This document shows positions 2,731 through 10,631 of a stretch of DNA of 10,631 nucleotides, piece by piece; position 1 is the stretch's first letter, and every line of letters starts with the position of its first letter. The notes under the pieces are model-generated. The model did no database searches. It was not told the DNA's origin and saw only the letters and a program-made list of their open reading frames with translations. The DNA comes from a virus. Its lineage: Duplodnaviria; Heunggongvirae; Uroviricota; Caudoviricetes. Made by a program: the position numbers and the translations under genes. The stretch lies in IMG/VR virus record IMGVR_UViG_2703718802_000006; one strand, written 5' to 3'.

Positions 2731-2856
2731 ATGTCTGCACCTGCACTGCCTGATGTCAGAACAGTATTTTGATGAATTGCCAAGGTTACAATGGCACAAA
2801 TACGGCACAGGAGGAAACGTGGTGTATTTAAATATGGGGTAACTCTTTGATTTTAA

Positions 2857-2924
2857 TGGTGCCGATAATAGGAGTGTAACACGCGATAAATCTTGTGTTC
2901 GGGTCTTCTTCTACGACCTTCGCA
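2857..2924 (-). other. ptwF: Displaced tRNA-Thr (thrW-type) 3' fragment, i.e. element attachment-site remnant (ptwF-like), in two pieces
   Basis: 2857-2875 (tggtgccgataataggagt) is the reverse complement of ACTCCTATTATCGGCACCA, the T-arm/acceptor/CCA end of E. coli tRNA-Thr(CGU) as I recall it. 2911-2924 (ctacgaccttcgca) is the reverse complement of TGCGAAGGTCGTAG, the anticodon-stem/variable-loop/T-stem part of the same tRNA. The pieces are 35 nt apart here; the intact tRNA has 5 nt between them. Confidence 0.6.
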
Positions 2925-3014
2925 ACTACCTGATTTAACGATTTTTACGCACACTGATAATCTGGCATTCATCATGCACATGATAAACGCCCCTAAACTT
3001 TAACGGGGTGGAAA

Positions 3015-4229
3015 ATGAAATACAAGCCGGATCAATACATCATCTCTGATAGTTACGGAGTTTATTACGTCAGGATCTCAATTCCTATATGGCTTCGTAA
3101 TGCATTTGGTGGAAGAAAAACTCTCGTCCGTAGTCTGAACACTTCCGATCTTCGTGTGGCACGTAGGAAGCGTGATGTTATAGCAGACGAGTTTCACCAC
3201 ATCAGGCAAATTGCAGAGCCACCAAAACCGGACAGCCTGCAGGACACAATCAGCTATCTAAAGAGCGTTGCTAAGTACGCAAAAGCTGCCCCGAAAGCAT
3301 CAGCGCCAATTATCTCCCAATGCCCCTCTCTGAATAAGATGTTGGAGATTTACCTCACGCATAACGCTGATCGCCTGAAAATTGGAACATTAAGCAAGAC
3401 CAGGAAAGCCGTAGAACTGTTTCTGAATTACCTGCGAAAGAAGGATGTGGAACTAAACGATATCAACCGTACCACCGTTACAGGCTGGCTTGATCATCTC
3501 CGAGAAACAAAGGCAGTCCAAACAGTGGCTAACTATCTTTCTGCAATGGCAAACATTCTCGATCTTGCCTCTTCCCGATACCAGGACGCCCCACAGCTGG
3601 AAAGTAACGTATTCAGAGGGCATAAACTCAACACAGCGCAGAGCCGCCAGAGTTACGAGGCATTCACGGACGAAGAAATTACGAAGCTCATTAGCACGTT
3701 TAACAAGTTAGGAGAGGACGAATTAAGGGATTTAAGCGCCATAGCCGCTTATAGCGGAATGCGCATCAATGAAATAGCCAGTTTGAAATCTGACAATATC
3801 CGTGAAGTTGAGGGGGTGTTATGTTTCGATGTATTGGAAGGAAAGACAGCTAACGCTTCCAGGCTAATCCCATGCCATAGTGCGATTAAAACAATGGTCC
3901 TGGAACGCTGCCAGAAGCCGCACAACGGCTTTTTATTTTACCGTGCAAGTGTGACCAAGAGAGAGGACGGCAAGCGCTCCTCATGGCACGTAAACCGCTT
4001 TGGACGGCTTAAACGCGATATTCTCCCAGGGCAAGAAAACAAGGTGTTTCACTCGTACCGCCATGCCGTGATCAGTAAGCTAAACGCCGCCGGAGTGGAT
4101 GAATCTCGTATTGCCTTGCTCGCGGGCCACTCATTTGGAGAAACTGAATCTTTCAAGACGTATTCGAAATCCGTTCCTGAGCGAATAGTGAAGGAACTAA
4201 AAGAATATATCGAATTAATCAAATATTAA
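3015..4229 (+). CDS. int: Tyrosine recombinase / phage-type integrase, 404 aa
   Basis: GGTGG Shine-Dalgarno before the ATG at 3015. The C-terminal catalytic pattern is visible: AYSGMRINEI (Arg), HSYRHAV (His-x-x-Arg), LLAGHS (His) and KTYSK (Tyr nucleophile). It lies immediately next to the att fragment. Confidence 0.9.
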   Translation: MKYKPDQYIISDSYGVYYVRISIPIWLRNAFGGRKTLVRSLNTSDLRVARRKRDVIADEFHHIRQIAEPPKPDSLQDTISYLKSVAKYAKAAPKASAPIISQCPSLNKMLEIYLTHNADRLKIGTLSKTRKAVELFLNYLRKKDVELNDINRTTVTGWLDHLRETKAVQTVANYLSAMANILDLASSRYQDAPQLESNVFRGHKLNTAQSRQSYEAFTDEEITKLISTFNKLGEDELRDLSAIAAYSGMRINEIASLKSDNIREVEGVLCFDVLEGKTANASRLIPCHSAIKTMVLERCQKPHNGFLFYRASVTKREDGKRSSWHVNRFGRLKRDILPGQENKVFHSYRHAVISKLNAAGVDESRIALLAGHSFGETESFKTYSKSVPERIVKELKEYIELIKY

Positions 4230-4243
4230 AATACCTTAAATGT

Positions 4244-4260
4244 GAGGGGGAATCCCCCTC
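4244..4260. terminator. Bidirectional intrinsic terminator between the convergent int and 92-aa genes
   Basis: GAGGGGG-aat-CCCCCTC perfect 7-bp GC-rich stem. On the + strand it is followed by TATTTTATTT. On the - strand it sits 4 nt downstream of the 92-aa gene stop. Confidence 0.65.
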
Positions 4261-4264
4261 TATT

Positions 4265-4543
4265 TTATTTATACCATACACTTTGCATATATTGCGATGT
4301 TTCAGATGAAATATTATACCAATATGCATAATTATTTGTTGCATCTACAACTATCAATTTATCATCACTATCCATCGCTTTATGAACTATTTGCGCTGCC
4401 TGTTCAGAATTGTAATGTGAATTAACATACCAATTTGATTCTGTAACTTTGACTGCTACGCCCAATGATTTAATAGCTTCGTAAACTGCTGGATAGTTTT
4501 TAGTTTTGATCAAGTCATAGGTTACAAAAAGATTGTTAGCCAT
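4265..4543 (-). CDS. Hypothetical 92-aa protein; predicted beta-alpha-beta-beta-alpha-beta (ferredoxin-like, Cas2/VapD-reminiscent) pattern
   Basis: GGAGAG Shine-Dalgarno 8 nt before the ATG at 4543. The region is AT-rich. Alternating segments by eye are LFVTYDL (beta, ending in Asp), YPAVYEAIKSLG (helix), AVKVTESNWYVNS (beta hairpin), SEQAAQIVHKAM (helix) and KLIVVDAT (beta). The fold is inferred by eye only. Confidence 0.7.
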   Translation of the reverse strand: MANNLFVTYDLIKTKNYPAVYEAIKSLGVAVKVTESNWYVNSHYNSEQAAQIVHKAMDSDDKLIVVDATNNYAYWYNISSETSQYMQSVWYK

Positions 4544-4571
4544 TTTATTCTCTCCAGAGATTCAAAAGAAT

Positions 4572-4591
4572 AAGCGCCGCTATAGGCGCTT
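4572..4591 (-). terminator. Intergenic hairpin (possible attenuator, partial terminator or processing site) between the 42-aa and 92-aa genes
   Basis: On the minus strand: AAGCGCC-uauagc-GGCGCUU (7 bp) followed by AUUCUUUUG. It lies 10 nt after the 42-aa gene stop and ~28 nt before the 92-aa gene start. Confidence 0.35.
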
Positions 4592-4601
4592 TGAGATGTT
4601 T

Positions 4602-4730
4602 TTATTTCTTAGCTTTCTTGGTAGGGATTTTGATAGTTTCAGTTACCGTAGTGTCAGGATGTCTTTTAGCTTCAATGGGCTTAACAAACTGACCAGTTAT
4701 CGCAGAACGAACTACTGTTTTCTTAGCCAT
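4602..4730 (-). CDS. 42-aa lysine-rich basic peptide (MAKKTVVRSAITGQFVKPIEAKRHPDTTVTETIKIPTKKAKK)
   Basis: Internal ATG of the 76-aa track ORF, preceded by GAGGTG with 4-nt spacing. The upstream 34 codons of the long form have no RBS and overlap the candidate promoter. I recall short proteins with an RSAxTGxFV…HPxTTVxE pattern being widespread and poorly annotated, but I cannot name a family. Confidence 0.55.
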   Translation of the reverse strand: MAKKTVVRSAITGQFVKPIEAKRHPDTTVTETIKIPTKKAKK

Positions 4731-4776
4731 AAAACACCTCATCTTGGAGATAAAGAGTGAACTGCTTACCCTTTTA

Positions 4777-4805
4777 AGAATAAGGGACAAACGAAGCGGC
4801 GTCAA
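4777..4805 (-). promoter_or_regulatory. Candidate sigma70 promoter for the 42-aa/92-aa cargo module
   Basis: Minus strand: TTGACG (4805-4800), 17 nt, TATTCT (4782-4777). It is ~45 nt upstream of the ATG at 4730 and immediately downstream of the structural-operon terminator. Confidence 0.4.
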
Positions 4806-4807
4806 AG

Positions 4808-4857
4808 AAAAAACACCACATATACACATCATTTACAAAACAAGCGCAATATGTGGT
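4808..4857 (-). terminator. Terminator-like hairpin ending the structural operon
   Basis: Minus strand: ACCACAUAU (4857-4849) pairs with AUAUGUGGU (4823-4815) across a 25-nt loop. After one unpaired G this is followed by UUUUUU (4813-4808). It begins ~25 nt after the 623-aa gene stop. The large loop makes it atypical. Confidence 0.4.
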
Positions 4858-4881
4858 ATCTCCATGCGATTTACATCACAA

Positions 4882-6753
4882 TCACCCCCCTGTGCTGCTC
4901 TGACCGCTCAAGGCTGACAAGGTGAGCGACTGTGTAAAACTGGCTTGTGAGGCTCTCGCCTGGAAATCAATGTAATCGCTCAGCCTTGAGCTATCGCTGG
5001 CGATAGTTAGCGGAACAGACGCTTCAAGATTGAGATTGAATACAGGTGCAAGATTGTACGCTGGCGCACTATTGGTGCTGGTTAGGGATGATATAGCAGA
5101 ATCACGAAGCGCTCCCCCTTTCAGAGAATCACCATTCAGGCCGTATTGTTCTACCGCTGTCCCTGTAGGCTGATCATCTATCCCTAACCAACCTTTAACG
5201 GCATGACCTACACTACGGCTGTCCCACCCTGTCTTGTCCTGCACCCAATCGGCAGCACTGTTGGCACTTCCTGTAACAGCACCATCATACAAACTCTGTG
5301 CCGCTGGCTTATCGCTACCAGTGAACCATTGAGGGAAACGTTCTTTCAGCCCTGCATTGATATCACTCACAACACTGGAAATCTCACCCACAAACCCAGT
5401 GATTTCTTTCGAGAGATTGCCTAAGCCCTCTCCAAGCATTCCCGCCGCTTCGGTGATAATTTTGGTTTTCCTTACCAGATCGTCGCCCCCATCGGCAAAG
5501 CCTTTCATCCAGCCTGTAAACAACTGATTGTCTATTCCATTCATCAGATTACCCATAGCAACACTCAAATCGCCATACTCATAAACCTGCTTGATCATTT
5601 CGTCGTTCAGCGTCTGACCGGACTCAATGAGAGTTCTTAGCGTCTTGTTATACTCTGCACCGTTGTTCATGAACATATCGGTGTAGTGCATCAGGTCATC
5701 ACCTAAACTCTCAATCAGCGTACCAATCTGAGCCTGTGACATACCACGGCGTTGCCCTTCATTCACCGTAGCTTGAACAAAATCGAGTGGTGAATCTTGG
5801 AACTTGGAAATCTGATCCTTACTCCATCCAAATTTGTTCATTATCGACGTAATGCCACCATCCCCACCCTTCCATTCGCCATTCTTCATTTGAGCATCGT
5901 TAACAGTCATGGCGAGGCGTTCACGCACATCTTTCATGTTATCGACGGCTTTTGAGGTATTAGCTGAATCAACACCGTGTTGCTGTCCCCAGGCCACCAT
6001 CGTTTTTATGGCGTTTGGGTTGGTTTTCACACGTTCACTCATTCTCACCAGTTCGAGGTTATCATTCCCTTTGTCAATAATTCGCTGCCCCACTCCGAGG
6101 GAGCCAGCCGTTAACGCAAGGCTTCCTAATACCCCACCACCGACGATAGGAGCATTCCCGCCCTTCTGAGCCTTTAGCTTAGTGGCTGCTGCGGCATACT
6201 GGGTACGCTGTGCCTGTGTCACTTTGGCTTGCTGTGCGGCTTCTCTGCGTAACAGGGTTACACGCTCACGAATAGATGCGTTCATACGGGCACTGGTCAG
6301 ATTGCCTTTGGCAAATTCCTCTGTTTGCTGACGTATGAAACGTAACGCTTCATATTGAGATTTAAGATCAAGTCCGTATTTACCTTTAATTCCTGACACT
6401 TGTAGCCCTGCATGGCGAAGTTTAAGCTCGGCTGTCTCTTGGTGCTTCTGTAGCTGCTGCTTCGCTTTCAGATTGGCCTTTTCATCCCTGGCTTTCTGCT
6501 TCTCTGCCGCACGTTGGGCTTTCATTTCCTTCGTATCACGAGGTTTATCATTAAAACGTGCATCATCGGCTTGTTGACGAGCTTTCTGTCTGCGCTGCTT
6601 CTGAGCCTGGAAGCGAATCTTGGGATCGGCTATTTTCTGGAAGTGCTTTTGAAGGTTATCCGCTGCGGCTTTAGCCAGAGCAATGCTCTGCTTATCCACC
6701 ACGAATGTAACCGTATTGCGGATCTGACTGACCGAAATATCAAGCATCGCCAC
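4882..6753 (-). CDS. Large structural protein, tape-measure-like, 623 aa (Lys/Gln/Ala-rich coiled-coil N-terminus plus a glycine-rich hydrophobic segment)
   Basis: Long uninterrupted ORF. Residues ~50-190 are charged heptad-like repeats (KQRRQKARQQADD…EKQKARDEKANLKAKQQLQKHQE). APIVGGGVLGSLALTAGSLGVG is a Gly-zipper hydrophobic stretch, as seen in tape measure proteins. The start is ambiguous: GTG at 6753 or ATG at 6747. It overlaps the upstream 65-aa gene by 14 nt. Confidence 0.8.
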   Translation of the reverse strand: MAMLDISVSQIRNTVTFVVDKQSIALAKAAADNLQKHFQKIADPKIRFQAQKQRRQKARQQADDARFNDKPRDTKEMKAQRAAEKQKARDEKANLKAKQQLQKHQETAELKLRHAGLQVSGIKGKYGLDLKSQYEALRFIRQQTEEFAKGNLTSARMNASIRERVTLLRREAAQQAKVTQAQRTQYAAAATKLKAQKGGNAPIVGGGVLGSLALTAGSLGVGQRIIDKGNDNLELVRMSERVKTNPNAIKTMVAWGQQHGVDSANTSKAVDNMKDVRERLAMTVNDAQMKNGEWKGGDGGITSIMNKFGWSKDQISKFQDSPLDFVQATVNEGQRRGMSQAQIGTLIESLGDDLMHYTDMFMNNGAEYNKTLRTLIESGQTLNDEMIKQVYEYGDLSVAMGNLMNGIDNQLFTGWMKGFADGGDDLVRKTKIITEAAGMLGEGLGNLSKEITGFVGEISSVVSDINAGLKERFPQWFTGSDKPAAQSLYDGAVTGSANSAADWVQDKTGWDSRSVGHAVKGWLGIDDQPTGTAVEQYGLNGDSLKGGALRDSAISSLTSTNSAPAYNLAPVFNLNLEASVPLTIASDSSRLSDYIDFQARASQASFTQSLTLSALSGQSSTGG

Positions 6754-6937
6754 CGCCTTTCTTACTCACCAGATAATTAAGTGCATCTGATACACTACGC
6801 CCACGATGTAATAACTGACGTAGATGACCGTGATCTATTTCAAGCACACGACACACTCCCGCCAGATTTAATAACTCTTCTGCTGTTTCAGCATTTACGG
6901 CGAGGTGAAGCCCCGCGCTTTTTACAATCACTTGCAT
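6740..6937 (-). CDS. Hypothetical 65-aa protein
   Basis: AAGAGGAAAG Shine-Dalgarno before the ATG at 6937. Its 3' end overlaps the start of the 623-aa gene, suggesting translational coupling. I recognise no motif. Confidence 0.6.
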   Translation of the reverse strand: MQVIVKSAGLHLAVNAETAEELLNLAGVCRVLEIDHGHLRQLLHRGRSVSDALNYLVSKKGGGDA

Positions 6938-6962
6938 TTATCTTTCCTCTTATTCTGGAAAT

Positions 6963-7046
6963 AAAAAAGGGCGGGAACACTGGGGAGATGTTCCCAACGT
7001 TCACACGCCCTATTCAAAAGCCTGATTATTGCCTGCGGGTCAGGCT
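6963..7046 (-). terminator. Two tandem intrinsic-terminator-like hairpins downstream of the capsid gene
   Basis: Minus strand T1: AGCCUGA (7046-7040) pairs with UCAGGCU (7025-7019), followed by UUUG. Minus strand T2: GGGAACA-ucuccccag-UGUUCCC (6995-6973), closed by GGGC/GCCC (7010-7007 with 6972-6969) and followed by UUUUUUAU (6968-6961). Confidence 0.55.
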
Positions 7047-7058
7047 CCCGCTTGCTCA

Positions 7059-8090
7059 TTAAGCAGTGATGGTGATCTTCACTTGCATACCTAACGCATG
7101 GTTCACTGGTAATGCGCTGTTTTCGTGCATAACGTGGTAAGCATCGCCGCGCTCGCTCAGGTAGCCCCAAGAGTAGTATTCAGCAGGTGCAGCATCGATC
7201 AGCGCGAAGTTGCCAGAGGCAGCGCCGTAGATGTTCTGATAAGCATTTGTGCCTTTACTGAATACCGGAACCGCCACCATGTCAGCATCATCTGGCATCT
7301 GTGCAAGGATCAGCGGATCTGTCACTTTAACAATGTCGATAGGCGCACCAGGTAGGCTAAACGTACTAACACCAGGGAGAAGCTCGTGACGCTGGTAGAA
7401 TAGGTTACGGTCGTCATATGGCGCTACATACTGGAACGCCTTAGACATACTGTCAGAGAAGCGAATCTGGCTAAATGCAGCAGGTTTAGCGAATACGATC
7501 ACTCGTTCAATCTGTCCAGCCAATCCACCTGCGGCAGCCTGAACTTTGTCTAAGATGGCATCAAAATCCTGTGCCGCTGTCGCTGTGCTCACGCTGGCTG
7601 TCATTGGCACCACACCGAACAGTTCAGCATAAGAGATCAGTAGGTCATCAGTTGCAGGCGTATAAACTTCACCTTTGAACAGAGCACGGGCCAGGTAGGA
7701 TTCACGGGTACGAAGATAGGCAATCTTATGTTTCCCTGTGTACTCGGTGTACAGGTCGGTAACGGTTTGCTCGTAGTCCGTGCCTTGCACCCTTTTCCCT
7801 TGTACGTCTACTGGTTTGAAGGTGTCTTCCCTCGCAAACCAAGGGATCTCCACCAAATATTCTTTACCATTCTGACGCGCGGTAGTGTCGTGGCTTGATG
7901 AATAACGACTCTGCGGGGTGTTAAACAGGCTGTAGTTATCATCCAGAAGCTGTGTCACCACCACTTTCGGATTCTGAACACCTACCCCGTCGAAGAGGTC
8001 GAGAGCATTCATAAGATAGTTACGTTCCGGCAGAGCCTGGAAGATTGGCGCTAAATCGACCATCTCACGCCCAATTGCGATTTTACTCAT
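7059..8090 (-). CDS. Major capsid protein, lambda gpE-like family, 343 aa
   Basis: AAGGAAG Shine-Dalgarno before the ATG at 8090. The size is typical of E-family capsid proteins. The central segment ESYLARALFKGEVYTP resembles the lambda E segment EMQAVSAVLKGKYTM. It sits directly after a small decoration-like gene, as in the lambda D-E order. Family assignment is by eye. Confidence 0.75.
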   Translation of the reverse strand: MSKIAIGREMVDLAPIFQALPERNYLMNALDLFDGVGVQNPKVVVTQLLDDNYSLFNTPQSRYSSSHDTTARQNGKEYLVEIPWFAREDTFKPVDVQGKRVQGTDYEQTVTDLYTEYTGKHKIAYLRTRESYLARALFKGEVYTPATDDLLISYAELFGVVPMTASVSTATAAQDFDAILDKVQAAAGGLAGQIERVIVFAKPAAFSQIRFSDSMSKAFQYVAPYDDRNLFYQRHELLPGVSTFSLPGAPIDIVKVTDPLILAQMPDDADMVAVPVFSKGTNAYQNIYGAASGNFALIDAAPAEYYSWGYLSERGDAYHVMHENSALPVNHALGMQVKITITA

Positions 8091-8106
8091 TATTTATCTT
8101 CCTTGA

Positions 8107-8466
8107 TTAAGAGGTGAAGAATGGACGGCATACGAACCCTTTGGATTCGAGCGTGGTGATAGCTGCGGCGTGATTAGCTGCGTGCAGGTTGTCGGCTTTC
8201 AGTGCTACGAAGCTGCCAACATTAGGCGCACGTAGGACATTCACGGTTTTACCGTCGCCAGCACTCACGAAATCACTTACCACCACAAAGGCATCATCGC
8301 CGGAGGTGTATAGAGCGCCATCAGCGCCGATAACATCGCCGCATTCAATATCTGCTGGCAGGTCGAAAACACGGCCTTCTACGACTGCAAAAGAATCAGT
8401 GGCGTAGCTCACTACGTCAGTGAAACTCTTACGAATTGGGAAAAGTTCGGTTAGGTCTACAATCAT
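8107..8466 (-). CDS. Head decoration protein-like (lambda gpD-type position and size), 119 aa
   Basis: ATGA start/stop overlap with the upstream 71-aa gene. It is a small Gly/Ala/Val/Asp-rich beta-type protein immediately upstream of the capsid gene. Function is inferred mainly from synteny and composition. Confidence 0.6.
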   Translation of the reverse strand: MIVDLTELFPIRKSFTDVVSYATDSFAVVEGRVFDLPADIECGDVIGADGALYTSGDDAFVVVSDFVSAGDGKTVNVLRAPNVGSFVALKADNLHAANHAAAITTLESKGFVCRPFFTS

Positions 8467-8678
8467 TGTTGTTTGATTTCCTTGGATTTGATTGCGATCC
8501 GTTCCTGCATACTAAGTTGAGGTGTGTCCTCAGAAGGGAAATACTGGTCTACAGCTTTTTCTATTTCTTCAACGGTACATCCTGCCATTTCAGCCACTTT
8601 AGCTATTAACTCAGGATTAACTTGAATCACTTCGGATTTGTATTTTAGGATTCGGTCGCGATTGTTTATTAAGAACAT
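8463..8678 (-). CDS. Hypothetical 71-aa acidic helical protein, first gene of the capsid cluster
   Basis: AAGGAA Shine-Dalgarno 8 nt before the ATG at 8678. It is coupled to the next gene by an ATGA overlap. It occupies the position of a scaffold-type gene, but I see no recognisable similarity. Confidence 0.6.
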   Translation of the reverse strand: MFLINNRDRILKYKSEVIQVNPELIAKVAEMAGCTVEEIEKAVDQYFPSEDTPQLSMQERIAIKSKEIKQQ

Positions 8679-8749
8679 TGTGTTGTTCCTTCGCGTTATA
8701 ACTGCGTTTATCCTTCCATTAATAACGGAAGTGTTACATGCAGATTGTT

Positions 8750-8771
8750 AAAAAGGGGCGATTAAGCCCCT
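8750..8771 (-). terminator. Rho-independent terminator ending the leader/ncRNA transcript
   Basis: Minus strand: A-GGGGC-uuaauc-GCCCC-U followed by UUUUU (8754-8750). This is a canonical GC stem plus U tract, 72 nt upstream of the 71-aa gene start. Confidence 0.7.
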
Positions 8772-9296
8772 GGAGAATATGCCCTTGTTAGAAAGCATTC
8801 TGTTAAAATCATTTTCGTTTCGGAGGATTATGATGTTAAAGAAAGGTTTCTTGAAAAAATGAAGGGCGCAACTGTTACGAATAACAGAAGTAGGATCGCC
8901 CGTCATTGCTCCCACTTCAAAACAGAAGCCCTTCTGTCATGGCGAGAAGTGGGAATGGAATTTCTTATCACCCTGGAATAGTAATAAGAGATTGCCAGCC
9001 TGAACGTAACTACCACTGACGGCGTTTATTCAGTCTGACTGCTTATAATCCTAACGGGGTTATAAGGTTTAGAGCACGGAATATGCTCTCTGAAAGAGAA
9101 TGTGCGCGGTGATTGTTCGTTACCACCCGACACAAGTGGGAACGCCCGCGCCACCCTTTGGAACTAAACACAACAAAGGAAAACAACCAGCTTTCAGAGA
9201 GGATATTCAATGGGAGAGAGCGCCGCCTATGGGAAACGGCATTCTCAGGGAGTGCGTATTGTTATACGAGGGTGGAGTGATTCTAATACCTACCCT
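8750..9296 (-). ncRNA. Candidate ~550-nt structured non-coding transcript (or long late-operon leader), family unknown
   Basis: Bounded by a near-consensus promoter and a clean terminator on the same strand. There is no convincing ORF on either strand. It contains many hairpins: 9255-9268, 9216-9246, 9104-9151, 9071-9089, 9042-9066, 8910-8954 (nested) and 8872-8887. The last has a UUCG loop only in the minus-strand sense. Confidence 0.5.
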
Positions 9297-9303
9297 ATAA
9301 CTT

Positions 9304-9332
9304 ATTATGACACAAATAGCACAATATGTCAA
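9304..9332 (-). promoter_or_regulatory. Near-consensus sigma70 promoter
   Basis: Minus strand: TTGACA (9332-9327), 17-nt spacer, CATAAT (9309-9304). The predicted start is near A9296/G9295. Confidence 0.65.
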
Positions 9333-9347
9333 GATATTTCGTAATAT

Positions 9348-9686
9348 TTATGTTATAGCGCATTCTTCCGCGATCTGGATGGCAAGCTCTCCGAGTTCAA
9401 CGGTGATGTGTTCCATAGCGAGGGCAAGCTCCTCCATATCATTGGCAATGCGCCACGCCTGATCCACGGTGACGGTATCCCCGTTCATCTGCACCAGGTG
9501 CTCTACAGCAGCATTCCAGTGTTCAAGGGCGGTGATTGCCTGTTCAGTGTATTGCAGCGCTTCCAGGAGCGCGGAGGGCGTTCTCTCACACCACGCCCTA
9601 TTAACAAGCCACAGGGCTGGTAGATGCCAAATATCGTGGAAATAGTTAATTAGGGTGTTCATGGTGTCCATAGTTTTATTATTCAT
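9348..9686 (-). CDS. Hypothetical 112-aa helical protein
   Basis: I chose the ATG at 9686 because it overlaps the stop of the upstream 127-aa gene (AACAATGAATAA). The 161-aa long form would overlap that gene by 155 nt. The sequence is rich in Ala/Glu/Leu helices. The stop is 15 nt upstream of the -35 element of the RNA promoter. Confidence 0.6.
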   Translation of the reverse strand: MNNKTMDTMNTLINYFHDIWHLPALWLVNRAWCERTPSALLEALQYTEQAITALEHWNAAVEHLVQMNGDTVTVDQAWRIANDMEELALAMEHITVELGELAIQIAEECAIT

Positions 9687-10062
9687 TGTTGTTTTCCTTG
9701 TCGTCAAAGAGAATATCAAAATCTTGTATGTGGTGAGATAAGCCGTTAGTTTGGGAATACCCCACCCAGTCAACATAGTTTTCTGCGTATAGCTGCCACT
9801 TCTTAAGATTCGATGAATCAACACGGTATTCACGGCGGCGGCGTGGTTTATAGAAGACGTTATCCGAAGATGCTAAAACATCCTGCAATAGTTCAAACTC
9901 TGCCCCTACGGGCACCGTTGCAGGGTATTCTATTATTTCGGTGATCCATTCTCCTGGAATAGACTCTCGTGCGAGGTCTTGTAGAGAAGAGGTGTATTTA
10001 CGTTTGCTGGCGCGAGTGGCTTTTTCGATTCTAACAATGTTACTTCGTTCTTTTCGTCCCAT
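9679..10062 (-). CDS. Hypothetical 127-aa protein (basic N-terminus, acidic C-terminus)
   Basis: GAGGAA Shine-Dalgarno 3-5 nt before the ATG at 10062. It is translationally coupled to the downstream gene. I recognise no motif. Confidence 0.65.
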   Translation of the reverse strand: MGRKERSNIVRIEKATRASKRKYTSSLQDLARESIPGEWITEIIEYPATVPVGAEFELLQDVLASSDNVFYKPRRRREYRVDSSNLKKWQLYAENYVDWVGYSQTNGLSHHIQDFDILFDDKENNNE

Positions 10063-10075
10063 TCATTCCTCGTAG

Positions 10076-10162
10076 AGGGAAACTTCCGTGTTTTCTCGTT
10101 AATGTCCATACTGCGTAAAATGCAAATAACCAATACATAGCGATGATCATAAAAGTTTCCCT
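10076..10162. repeat. 10-bp perfect inverted repeat with a 67-nt spacer
   Basis: AGGGAAACTT (10076-10085) and AAGTTTCCCT (10153-10162). They flank the intergenic region between the 94-aa and 127-aa genes. This could be an operator pair or a long-range RNA stem. Confidence 0.5.
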
Positions 10163-10171
10163 ATTGTGTGT

Positions 10172-10456
10172 TTAGAAATTAGAGTAGATAAATTCTACAT
10201 TGTCTCGTTCGATGTGTTTCAGCGTGAATGATAGATAATGGCTTTCATCGTCGATATCGATCACACCAATGTTGCGCAGCGCACGAAGCCAGAATCTGAT
10301 CCCGTTATCACTTACACTGGATTTATCAGATAGCTCTCCGTAAGAAATTTTAGTTTTTCTGCCCTTCCAGAACCAGATAAGCGCATAATAAACGCCCTTC
10401 CCGCTATCGTTGATCTGTATCTGGTTTGTGTTGTTCAATTTTATGTATTGTATCAA
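10172..10456 (-). CDS. Winged-helix-like DNA-binding protein, 94 aa, TTG start
   Basis: AGGAGG (10467-10462) plus a 5-nt spacer before the TTG at 10456. The segment ISYGELSDKSSVSDNGIRFWLRALRNIGVIDID reads as helix-turn-helix followed by a beta wing. Confidence 0.65.
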   Translation of the reverse strand: MIQYIKLNNTNQIQINDSGKGVYYALIWFWKGRKTKISYGELSDKSSVSDNGIRFWLRALRNIGVIDIDDESHYLSFTLKHIERDNVEFIYSNF

Positions 10457-10469
10457 TTAGTCCTCCTGA

Positions 10470-10601
10470 TTAGTTCCAGTGGCGTTGTATTGTGGCGATC
10501 CCTTTCTTCATTAGTTCAGCCGTTTGTCTTTGGGTCAATCCTTTGGATTTGTGTTCCTGTACTTCTTTACGGGTGTTGTTACCTTTAACTTTCTTTCTCA
10601 C
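10470..10601 (-). CDS. Possible 43-aa HTH peptide (…GLTQRQTAELMKKGIATIQRHWN), GTG start, or the 3' end of a gene interrupted by an in-frame TAG
   Basis: The HTH-like motif resembles Hin/resolvase-type C-terminal HTH domains. An in-frame TAG at 10607-10605 lies two codons upstream of the GTG. The frame upstream of the TAG is open to the window edge. There is no clear Shine-Dalgarno. Confidence 0.35.
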   Translation of the reverse strand: MRKKVKGNNTRKEVQEHKSKGLTQRQTAELMKKGIATIQRHWN

Positions 10602-10631
10602 TTTCTAGACTGGCCCCCTGAATCTCCAGAC

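Follow-up and report, generated by a model that had tools for sequence, protein, structure and literature searches.

An IS2-truncated integrative element with coat, decoration and tape-measure genes of its own belongs to a family of putative phage satellites

Background

Why would an integrative element carry genes for a coat protein, a head decoration protein and one large tail protein without the packaging genes that accompany them in a phage? The question is raised by a stretch of 10,631 nucleotides filed as IMG/VR virus record IMGVR_UViG_2703718802_000006 (the window, by which we mean this whole stretch at its full length). A first-pass annotation, made from the sequence alone, had read positions 2857-10631 as a minimal capsid-encoding integrative element and a possible new type of phage satellite. 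The element proves to be an IS2-truncated member of a family already predicted by Barth, Dunham and Seed in 2023 ('Nuclease genes occupy boundaries of genetic exchange between bacteriophages', NAR Genom Bioinform 5:lqad076; PMC10448857; bioRxiv PMC10055350), with a helicase-type replicon and no baseplate gene. We consider it probable that the elements of this family are satellites of Stephanstirmvirinae and bring a coat, a decoration protein and a tape-measure protein of their own.

Results and discussion

The window holds part of an element integrated at thrW

The window matches positions 296535-307164 of the Escherichia coli RM10410 chromosome (NZ_CP042350.1) with 100% identity. Its bases 1-2840 are core chromosome, comprising paoC, paoD and the LysR pseudogene yagP'. 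Most E. coli genomes are similar to the window only up to 2899-2920, other copies of the element from 2839 onwards, and the G+C content falls from about 0.6 to about 0.45 at the border between the two. The integration junction (2843..2886) is a duplicate of the 3' end of the tRNA-Thr gene thrW, with its core at 2856-2880 and an extra 14-nucleotide match at 2911-2924; the left boundary first assigned, 2857, falls on this attachment (att) remnant. The att string 'ACTCTTTGATTTTAATGGTGC(C)GATAATAGGAGT...' listed in Table S6 of Barth et al. corresponds to window positions 2843-2886 (att_WT), and the 18-nucleotide att core occurs 136 times in that table. Next to the junction lies a plus-strand gene for a tyrosine integrase of 404 amino acids (3015..4229), which combines a DUF6538, a SAM-like and a catalytic domain and matches PF00589 (4.6e-11) and PF20172 (6.9e-11) in Pfam and phrog_1 (5.4e-34) in PHROGs.

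E. coli XYEH3934 carries the same element intact (99.5% identity, 13.5 kb), running from the yagP' junction to thrW and bounded by direct repeats of the thrW end. Of 25 positions of the window junction, 23 agree with the thrW 3' end that closes the intact element on its other side, 13,528 bp away. What the window holds of this thrW-integrated element is the 7.75 kb nearest the integrase, out of about 13.5 kb for the intact form.

At the right end, similarity to the intact copy stops at 10605. Positions 10606..10631 are an IS2 terminal inverted repeat, with the IS2 transposase annotated directly to the right, and beyond IS2 the RM10410 chromosome continues with unrelated DNA that is rich in insertion sequences (ISs) and contains pseudogenes. 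The element ends at this point in a minus-strand 3' fragment of a replication helicase gene (10470..10605), cut by IS2 and limited to about the last 45 codons, which encode a C-terminal helix-turn-helix (HTH). This fragment is identical to the C terminus of a 494-amino-acid DEAD/ResIII-like protein in the intact copy, only 7% of which is retained in RM10410. The missing distal 5.8 kb (Rep, origin region, small recombinase and thrW end) was found nowhere in RM10410 (locus L001, IS2 region 28605-29924). At a coverage of at least 80%, this distal part was found in XYEH3934 only, among 5426 complete E. coli genomes.

Beyond the point where the window ends, the intact copy encodes a DEAD/ResIII-type superfamily 2 (SF2) helicase-like Rep of 494 amino acids with a C-terminal HTH (phrog_2467), a ribbon-helix-helix protein and a tyrosine recombinase of 193 amino acids, and contains a 1.4-kb non-coding stretch; its accessory genes include one for a YecR lipoprotein. 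The replication genes that the first-pass annotation had missed are accordingly present in the intact element, and their absence from the window is an artefact of the IS2 truncation. Likewise, the segment 9348-10631, described there as a cargo module, consists of the core genes p112, p127 and p94, the 3' fragment of rep and the end of IS2. The other absences that it had reported were borne out: Pfam, PHROGs and NCBIfam searches of the open reading frames (ORFs) of both the window and the intact copy returned no terminase, portal, protease, connector, tail or lysis genes. An ordinary prophage continuing to the right of the window can be set aside on the same grounds, as that position is occupied by IS2 in RM10410 and the complete copy in XYEH3934 is free of phage packaging and tail genes.

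Coat, decoration and tape-measure genes

The structural genes lie on the minus strand. The major capsid protein (7059..8090, 343 amino acids) belongs to the lambda-E/HK97-fold family (PF03864, 1e-13), the alignment covering profile positions 2-328 of 329. A profile built from the family's capsid proteins matches phi92 gp124 over its full length (2e-18), as well as the capsid proteins of PhiTE, Bas63 and Sf14. PDB entry 9zbi, the best capsid match, was rejected as a member of the same family and is a distant relative only.

Directly upstream of the capsid gene lies the gene for a 119-amino-acid head decoration protein (8107..8466). It has no sequence match, and its gpD/SHP-like fold was recognized with AlphaFold2 (AF2) and Foldseek. 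The AF2 model, derived from 19 homologues, reached a predicted local distance difference test score (pLDDT) of 83.5 and a predicted template modelling score of 0.75. Decoration chains of PhiTE, Bas63 and Sf14 fill the first seven Foldseek ranks (E 6e-4 to 1e-2), with phage 21 SHP and lambda gpD next. The PDB entries found through the decoration fold are the same three (PhiTE, Bas63 and Sf14) that the capsid profile matches.

The third structural gene (4882..6753) encodes a tape-measure homologue of 621-623 amino acids, which matches phrog_16051, 'tail length tape measure protein', at 1.4e-96 and phi92 gp134 in the PDB at 2.6e-69. Over residues 230-623, its identity to the tape-measure proteins of Phapecoctavirus is about 40%, and the C-terminal 400 residues show about 40% identity to a gene found in some 140 phages of 145-153 kb; the longest alignment, to Klebsiella phage 05F01, spans residues 106-622 (83% of the protein) at 33% identity. 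In these phages the homologous gene follows those for sheath, tube and tail chaperone, the tape-measure position, and the element thus encodes a genuine tape-measure homologue. The element proteins are 609-623 amino acids long, against 635-662 in the phages. Through the Pfam, PHROGs, AF2/Foldseek and phi92 matches, the integrase, E-like capsid, decoration-like and tape-measure-like genes of the first-pass annotation can all be taken as real.

Two small genes complete the operon. Its first gene, p71 (8463..8678, present in 40 loci), has no match in Pfam, PHROGs, PADLOC or NCBIfam. The other, p65 (6740..6937, 43 loci), overlaps the start of the tape-measure gene; it has no significant Pfam or PHROGs match, does not resemble the small gene that precedes the tape-measure gene in the phage, and is possibly a chaperone or a regulator. 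Between the capsid gene and p65, a terminator scan found a minus-strand terminator-like hairpin with a 9-pair stem and a T tract (6972..6996), which suggests that coat expression is high and tape-measure expression lower, as in the phage. The hairpin occupies the same position as the annotated terminator just after the capsid gene of Schickermooser (Phapecoctavirus).

A conserved family under purifying selection

The capsid protein has 40-99% identical homologues in other E. coli lineages and in Klebsiella, Enterobacter, Citrobacter, Cronobacter, Kluyvera, Buttiauxella, Scandinavium, Pseudenterobacter and Pantoea. The order of genes around them is conserved in about 50 loci from at least nine genera, that is, in all loci examined: small recombinase, non-coding region, small ORFs, a replication gene of variable type, p94, p127 and p112, followed by a non-coding gap, p71, decoration, capsid, p65, tape measure, one or two accessory genes and the integrase. 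The distance from the start of the integrase to the start of the capsid gene is 5.1-5.5 kb in most loci and reaches 6.6 kb in two. The elements are flanked by direct repeats of 27-52 nucleotides derived from a tRNA 3' end and lying 13,407-13,939 bp apart.

Within this constant frame, modules are exchanged. The integrases are 32-100% identical and target tRNA-Thr, tRNA-Gly(ccc), tRNA-Leu(caa) or a lysR-family gene, which is split; integrase and att site are swapped as a module between members. In an element of Pseudenterobacter timonensis (L019), the capsid, decoration and p71 proteins are 98-100% identical to the window proteins (capsid 99%), with a tape-measure protein that is 62% and an integrase that is 49% identical, a combination that implies recent intergeneric transfer together with module exchange. 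The sister element L006 has the same order of genes at much greater distance: integrase 52%, tape measure 30%, capsid 53%, decoration 56%, and p71, p112, p127 and p94 38-43% identical to those of the window element. A related subfamily is found, at a coverage of at least 80%, in 285 of the 5426 complete E. coli genomes. In a metagenomic subfamily with a 44% identical capsid protein, the tape-measure gene is replaced by the Kiwa genes kwaB and kwaA (L008 9566-11108, L009 9541-11083); it otherwise keeps the architecture and a size of 13.47 kb from att to att.

The simplest account of a few structural genes beside an integrase would be prophage debris, a decayed temperate phage in which these genes survive by chance. 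The window copy itself is damaged by IS2 and its flanks are full of IS elements and pseudogenes, the arrangement of decoration, capsid, small gene and tape measure is that of a phage late operon with its middle deleted, and in some genomes the element adjoins a genuinely degraded prophage. Set against this is the finding that one small set of genes, in constant order and of constant total size, is met again in about 50 loci whose proteins are 30-99% identical and whose integrases and att sites vary. Inside the att-bounded element, terminase, portal and tail genes are absent from every member, and the spacing is too tight for any. The capsid ORF is full length in 51 of 53 loci, as are almost all other ORFs, and the median pairwise ratios of nonsynonymous to synonymous substitution rates (dN/dS) are low for the core genes: 0.10 for the integrase, 0.11 for capsid and p65, 0.18 for tape measure, decoration and p94, 0.22 for p112, 0.23 for p127 and 0.26 for p71. 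These ratios, spanning 0.10-0.26, argue that the family is not prophage debris. The earlier impression of intact rather than decaying genes is in line with this selection and with the conserved synteny and size. Recurrence, size and selection are incompatible with random prophage decay and fit a size-constrained mobile element. For the family the debris account is largely refuted, and we regard it as very unlikely.

Phage relatives point to virulent myoviruses

If the elements are satellites, their structural genes should indicate the helper. Hidden Markov models (HMMs) of the family proteins were compared with the 1348 ORFs of Schickermooser, and significant matches were obtained only for capsid (1.3e-15) and tape measure (5.8e-123). 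The decoration profile ranked the phage decoration gene best of the 1348 ORFs, without significance (E 1.6), and the HMMs of p92, p65, p71, p112, p127, p94, the ribbon-helix-helix protein, p57 and the helicase found nothing significant in this set. BLASTP comparison of the element capsid, decoration and p65 proteins with their positional counterparts in phAPEC8-like phages showed no similarity; capsid and decoration are linked to phages by profile or structure methods only.

Other members of the family supply further links. In the lysR-integrated E. coli subfamily, the tape-measure gene is followed by a Dit-like gene whose product is 58-61% identical to that of the gene following the tape measure in Justusliebigvirus (phi92-like). 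The 217-amino-acid Rep of this subfamily has its N-terminal 118-134 residues in common with phage proteins; identity is 78-82% for those of Mt1B1_P17 (a Phapecoctavirus) and BI-EHEC, and falls to 40% for muut (a Justusliebigvirus) and 28% for inny. Phapecoctavirus and Justusliebigvirus both belong to Stephanstirmvirinae. The phage counterparts of this Rep domain consist of winged-helix domains joined to a MUG113 (GIY-YIG/T5orf172-like) nuclease domain. Taken together, the homologies make virulent Stephanstirmvirinae myoviruses (phi92- or phAPEC8-like, about 150 kb) the most likely helpers. The tape-measure, capsid, decoration and Dit homologies led to the same helper group independently of Barth et al.

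The first-pass annotation had pointed instead to lambdoid helpers, and a satellite of lambdoid or other temperate phages, released by induction of a resident prophage and remodelling a lambdoid capsid, has some features in its favor. The capsid belongs to the lambda-E Pfam family, the decoration protein has the gpD/SHP fold, and the PR'-tR' logic of lambdoid phages appears to resemble the promoter, leader and terminator layout that precedes the late operon of the element (described below). However, no lambdoid phage appeared in any of the capsid, tape-measure, Dit or Rep-domain searches of phages, including a capsid tblastn search of 50,697 phage records. The tape-measure, Dit and Rep-domain homologies all lead to Stephanstirmvirinae, and the closest solved capsids are from large myoviruses. 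With every phage link pointing to this virulent group, we consider a lambdoid helper extremely unlikely.

A structured leader RNA precedes the capsid operon

Every member of the family has a non-coding gap between p112 and p71, of 640-760 nucleotides in one group and 330-355 nucleotides in another. In the window, it contains a minus-strand control region (8750..9332) made up of a promoter, a leader of about 550 nucleotides, and an internal and a final terminator. The sigma-70 promoter has a -35 box TTGACA (9332-9327), a 17-nucleotide spacer and an extended -10 element TG-CATAAT (-10 at 9309-9304); with a score of 11 of 12 and the extended TG it is the best promoter match in the element, and it looks both strong and constitutive. 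An intrinsic terminator with a GC hairpin and a T tract (8770-8750) lies about 70 nucleotides before the start of p71, and an internal terminator-like hairpin is located within the leader at about 8855-8905.

Conserved blocks and compensatory changes in the control region could be followed across 15 divergent members. Seven helices make up the fold of the leader core (8993-9248, minus strand), and compensatory changes in 14 divergent members support them. Across its 56 pairs, 93.1% of cells are paired, versus 35-44% when the partners are slid, and 22 of the 56 pairs have changes on both sides, versus 4-10 when slid; the observed values were reached in none of 500 shuffles. Many of the conserved pairs are G-U, which indicates a structure specific to the transcribed strand. 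The layout of promoter, leader and terminator is the same in the short (330-355 nucleotide), lysR-integrated subfamily. The leader has no match to any Rfam family at gathering or permissive thresholds, and we found no earlier report of this structured RNA.

We interpret the leader as a termination-controlled switch for the capsid operon, and perhaps as the site of helper sensing. It could silence the structural genes until a factor of the helper phage or the satellite permits read-through, or it could yield an immunity RNA similar to P4 CI RNA. P4 CI RNA exemplifies control by a leader RNA and termination, and a control of this kind is conceivable, by analogy, in the window element. As such, the leader may represent a new class of cis-acting riboregulator.

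A proposed life cycle and the evidence that bears on it

We propose the following course of events for an intact element. Infection by the helper would lead to excision of the element by its own integrase, followed by replication from its own origin with its own initiator, an SF2 helicase-like protein here and a RepA_N/winged-helix (wHTH) protein with iterons in other members. The operon from p71 through decoration, capsid and p65 to tape measure would then be expressed; promoter, leader and terminators would guard it until then, read-through of the leader terminators being the presumed helper-dependent switch. Coat and decoration proteins of the element would form small heads sized for one 13.5-kb genome. 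In P4 and SaPIs (Staphylococcus aureus pathogenicity islands), genomes of 11-15 kb correspond to T=4 heads; filling the head of a 150-kb helper would take about 11 copies of the element. The helper would supply portal, protease and scaffold, terminase, connectors and almost all tail functions. The satellite tape-measure protein, accompanied in some relatives by a tube-initiator/baseplate protein, would enter the tails made by the helper, where it could serve satellite particles, sabotage helper tails, or both.

Several points weigh against this proposal. The window copy, cut by IS2 and left without Rep, origin, small recombinase and thrW end, is probably an immobile remnant, with its structural genes intact. 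Capsid and decoration are only remotely related to those of the proposed helper, which leaves the fit of the element coat with helper portal and scaffold unproven; the true helper could be a closer phage that has yet to be sampled. The SF2 helicase-type Rep has only weak, 23% matches among phage proteins, from unrelated phages, and no Odn-like counterpart. A search for a shared pac or cos site or DNA motif found no match for the two non-coding gaps in the 50,697 phage records, and comparison of the whole element with complete Phapecoctavirus DNA recovered the tape-measure gene and, at chance level, a single terminator hairpin, but nothing else. The element can dispense with the tape-measure gene, whose slot holds the Kiwa pair in one subfamily. 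Episomal or virome-only contigs were not found, the contigs of 12-14 kb lacking terminal overlap and being bounded by att sites or host DNA. Finally, our literature search returned no experimental report of excision, replication, packaging or small capsids for this family.

The same structural genes could serve a different end. As an anti-phage interference island, the element would use its capsid, decoration and tape-measure (and Dit) homologues as dominant-negative or decoy subunits that poison the assembly of phi92-like phages; packaging of the element is not required for this role, which can be compatible with satellite behavior. The phage parts of which the elements hold divergent homologues (coat, tape measure and tube initiator) are the very ones that nucleate assembly. 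The presence of KwaA and KwaB in the tape-measure slot of one subfamily suggests a defence hotspot, and this slot may be a hotspot of conflict. Nucleases of Stephanstirmvirinae carry the DNA-binding domain of the elements' Rep, implying that the elements are harmful to these phages. Tail-assembly interference is also a known defence theme of phage-inducible chromosomal islands (PICIs), according to PMC11364771. However, the structural genes have no PADLOC match, and the size of 13.4-13.9 kb, the own replicon, the intergeneric spread, and the selection on coat and decoration genes are better explained by replication and by fit to a capsid. We therefore rate interference as the main function as rather unlikely, and retain the satellite proposal as the probable one.

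Within that proposal, the satellite tape-measure protein, with or without the tube initiator, may reprogram or sabotage the tails of a 150-kb virulent myovirus. The joint reading, in which the leader is a new class of riboregulator and the tape-measure protein alters or disables helper tails, is put forward tentatively, and we hold it to be possible but doubtful as a whole. If the elements are real satellites, they would make up a widespread class of parasites of large virulent phages, with a member in no fewer than 5% of complete E. coli genomes. They would then be expected to affect phage host range, efficacy and gene transfer, and would offer a tractable E. coli counterpart to the PLE-ICP1 arms race of Vibrio.

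Replication module, core genes and accessory slot

The replication gene varies in type between members, and with it the adjoining DNA. Members with a RepA_N/wHTH-type initiator have 4-5 direct repeats of 20-32 nucleotides in a long non-coding region (L007 2402-2535, L013 5548-5639, L010 5138-5403), and these iteron arrays are likely origins of replication; the corresponding region of the helicase type (L003 27200-28620) shows no convincing iterons. The helicase has a weak HamB-like match in PADLOC. At the far end of intact elements lies a second, small tyrosine recombinase of 186-205 amino acids that consists of the catalytic domain only (L003 28592-29173, with an equivalent in most family loci). 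It has a conserved neighbor gene of about 66 amino acids and is separated from the replication genes by a non-coding region of 1.4-1.8 kb. Multimer resolution and an inversion switch are both possibilities for its role.

Three minus-strand core genes separate the replication gene from the capsid operon. The product of p94 (10172..10456, 32 loci), which adjoins the replication gene, is a small winged-helix-like protein with only weak matches to HTH_72 and HTH_11. The next gene, p127 (9679..10062), is full length in 45 of 46 loci. Its homologues form 167 clusters, all from Enterobacteriaceae and none of them named, compared with 52 clusters of capsid homologues in the same database; p127 may also occur in related elements without a capsid gene. 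The AF2 model of p127 was unusable (pLDDT 54). The third gene, p112 (9348..9686), is found in 37 loci at 24-100% identity and has no family match.

On the other side of the operon, the slot between tape measure and integrase is variable. In the window it holds the minus-strand accessory gene p92 (4265..4543), which matches phrog_1090 (8e-22, function unknown) and is present in some family members only, its place being taken elsewhere by a gene of 155 amino acids or by the Dit-like gene. The p92 protein also shows a weak Cas2-like PADLOC match (E 2.8e-4); a CRISPR or cas context is absent. Beside it lies p42 (4602..4730, minus strand), a small ORF annotated in RefSeq that is conserved at 70-98% in some members and has no family match. 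A terminator scan placed a bidirectional terminator hairpin with 7 pairs, 6 of them GC, in the interval between integrase and p92 (4244..4260). The small regulators listed in the first-pass annotation did not find support, as none of the small ORFs of the window has a significant family match that would mark it as a regulator.

Some loci are more complex at their borders. The window element adjoins yagP' (2391-2730), a LysR-family pseudogene without its N terminus, and the sister subfamily splits another LysR-family gene near a methylmalonyl-CoA mutase operon (L006 2787-3119 / 15375-16019). In AR_0128 and about eight similar E. coli genomes, an 89%-identical element (L002 1192-15004) does not abut yagP'; a degraded prophage, with gene fragments for terminase, sheath, tube and tail fibres and an integrase of its own, lies between the two, and these loci are composite islands at thrW. 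The member in Pantoea sp. JKS000250 has an extra gene for a PhiTE-type head-tail adaptor (PF26075; L017 7827-8306). The same locus also holds a second integrase, a SIR2/NTPase defence-like gene, a P4-like Psu and Ogr/Delta (L017 15448-21062), and is a tandem array of satellite-like elements.

Comparison with known phages and satellites

The closest arrangement in a phage is the late module of Stephanstirmvirinae (phi92, phAPEC8 and Schickermooser), in which decoration gene, E-family capsid gene and terminator, and further on small gene, tape measure and tube initiator, follow in the order seen in the element family. In the phages these genes are interspersed with, and flanked by, those for terminase, portal, protease, scaffold, neck, sheath, tube, chaperone and baseplate, none of which the element has.

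Among satellites, P4 is similar in its size of about 11-13 kb, its integration in tRNA genes and its possession of a capsid decoration protein (Psu), but it redirects the P2 coat through Sid and has neither a coat nor a tape-measure gene. The P4 hallmarks Sid, Psu, Delta/Ogr and the alpha primase-helicase gave no Pfam or PHROG match in the element, and no C4 or CI RNA was found with Rfam. Nor is it a classical Gram-negative PICI: there is no match to alpA, pri-rep or the small terminase subunit TerS, and a coat gene is present instead. The capsid-forming PICIs (cfPICIs) are likewise satellite-sized integrative elements with an HK97-fold coat of their own, which leave the helper capsid unremodelled. 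Unlike the window family, they encode a complete module for head formation and packaging (portal, protease, connectors and TerS), have alpA and pri-rep besides, and depend on the helper for tails alone; none of these hallmarks was detected in our elements, apart from the PhiTE-type adaptor in the single Pantoea relative.

The PLE of Vibrio cholerae resembles the family in having a virulent helper, as is likely here, and a modular Rep and origin countered by an Odn-like phage nuclease with a matching DNA-binding domain. According to PMC10945586, PLE builds small capsids from the ICP1 coat with the external scaffold TcaP. It has no coat or tape-measure protein of its own, and no sequence relationship to the window family was found.

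The elements of Barth et al. come closest. These authors described 224 "putative E. coli phage satellites" (PMC10055350 / PMC10448857; Fig. 8, Table S6), att-flanked elements of about 13 kb in tRNA genes or lysR. Their structural genes specify a major capsid protein, a decoration protein, a baseplate component and a tape-measure protein; their Rep domains are swappable, and terminase, prohead protease, alpA, adaptors and Pri-Rep are all missing (PMC10448857). The window family shares the size of about 13 kb, the thrW att string, the tyrosine integrase, the capsid, decoration and tape-measure genes and the modular replication. The window variant differs in its SF2 helicase-like Rep, where the Barth elements have a RepA_N initiator, and in lacking the baseplate gene; the L006 sister element does carry a RepA_N-type initiator that matches a phage Odn-like nuclease. 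RM10410 and three other genomes that we checked are not in Table S6, an absence that fits a search seeded on RepA_N, which the window variant lacks. The proposal of a new satellite type consequently holds in part: the element is a compact integrative satellite candidate that supplies coat, decoration and one large tail protein, but the type had already been described by Barth et al., on the same line of reasoning. To that description the present work adds a broader taxonomic survey, an analysis of selection, structural evidence for the decoration protein, an independent route to the helper, and the leader RNA. If the satellite proposal is correct, the strategy would differ from those of P4, PICIs, cfPICIs and PLE alike: coat, decoration and tape-measure proteins would be the satellite's own, and everything else would be stolen.

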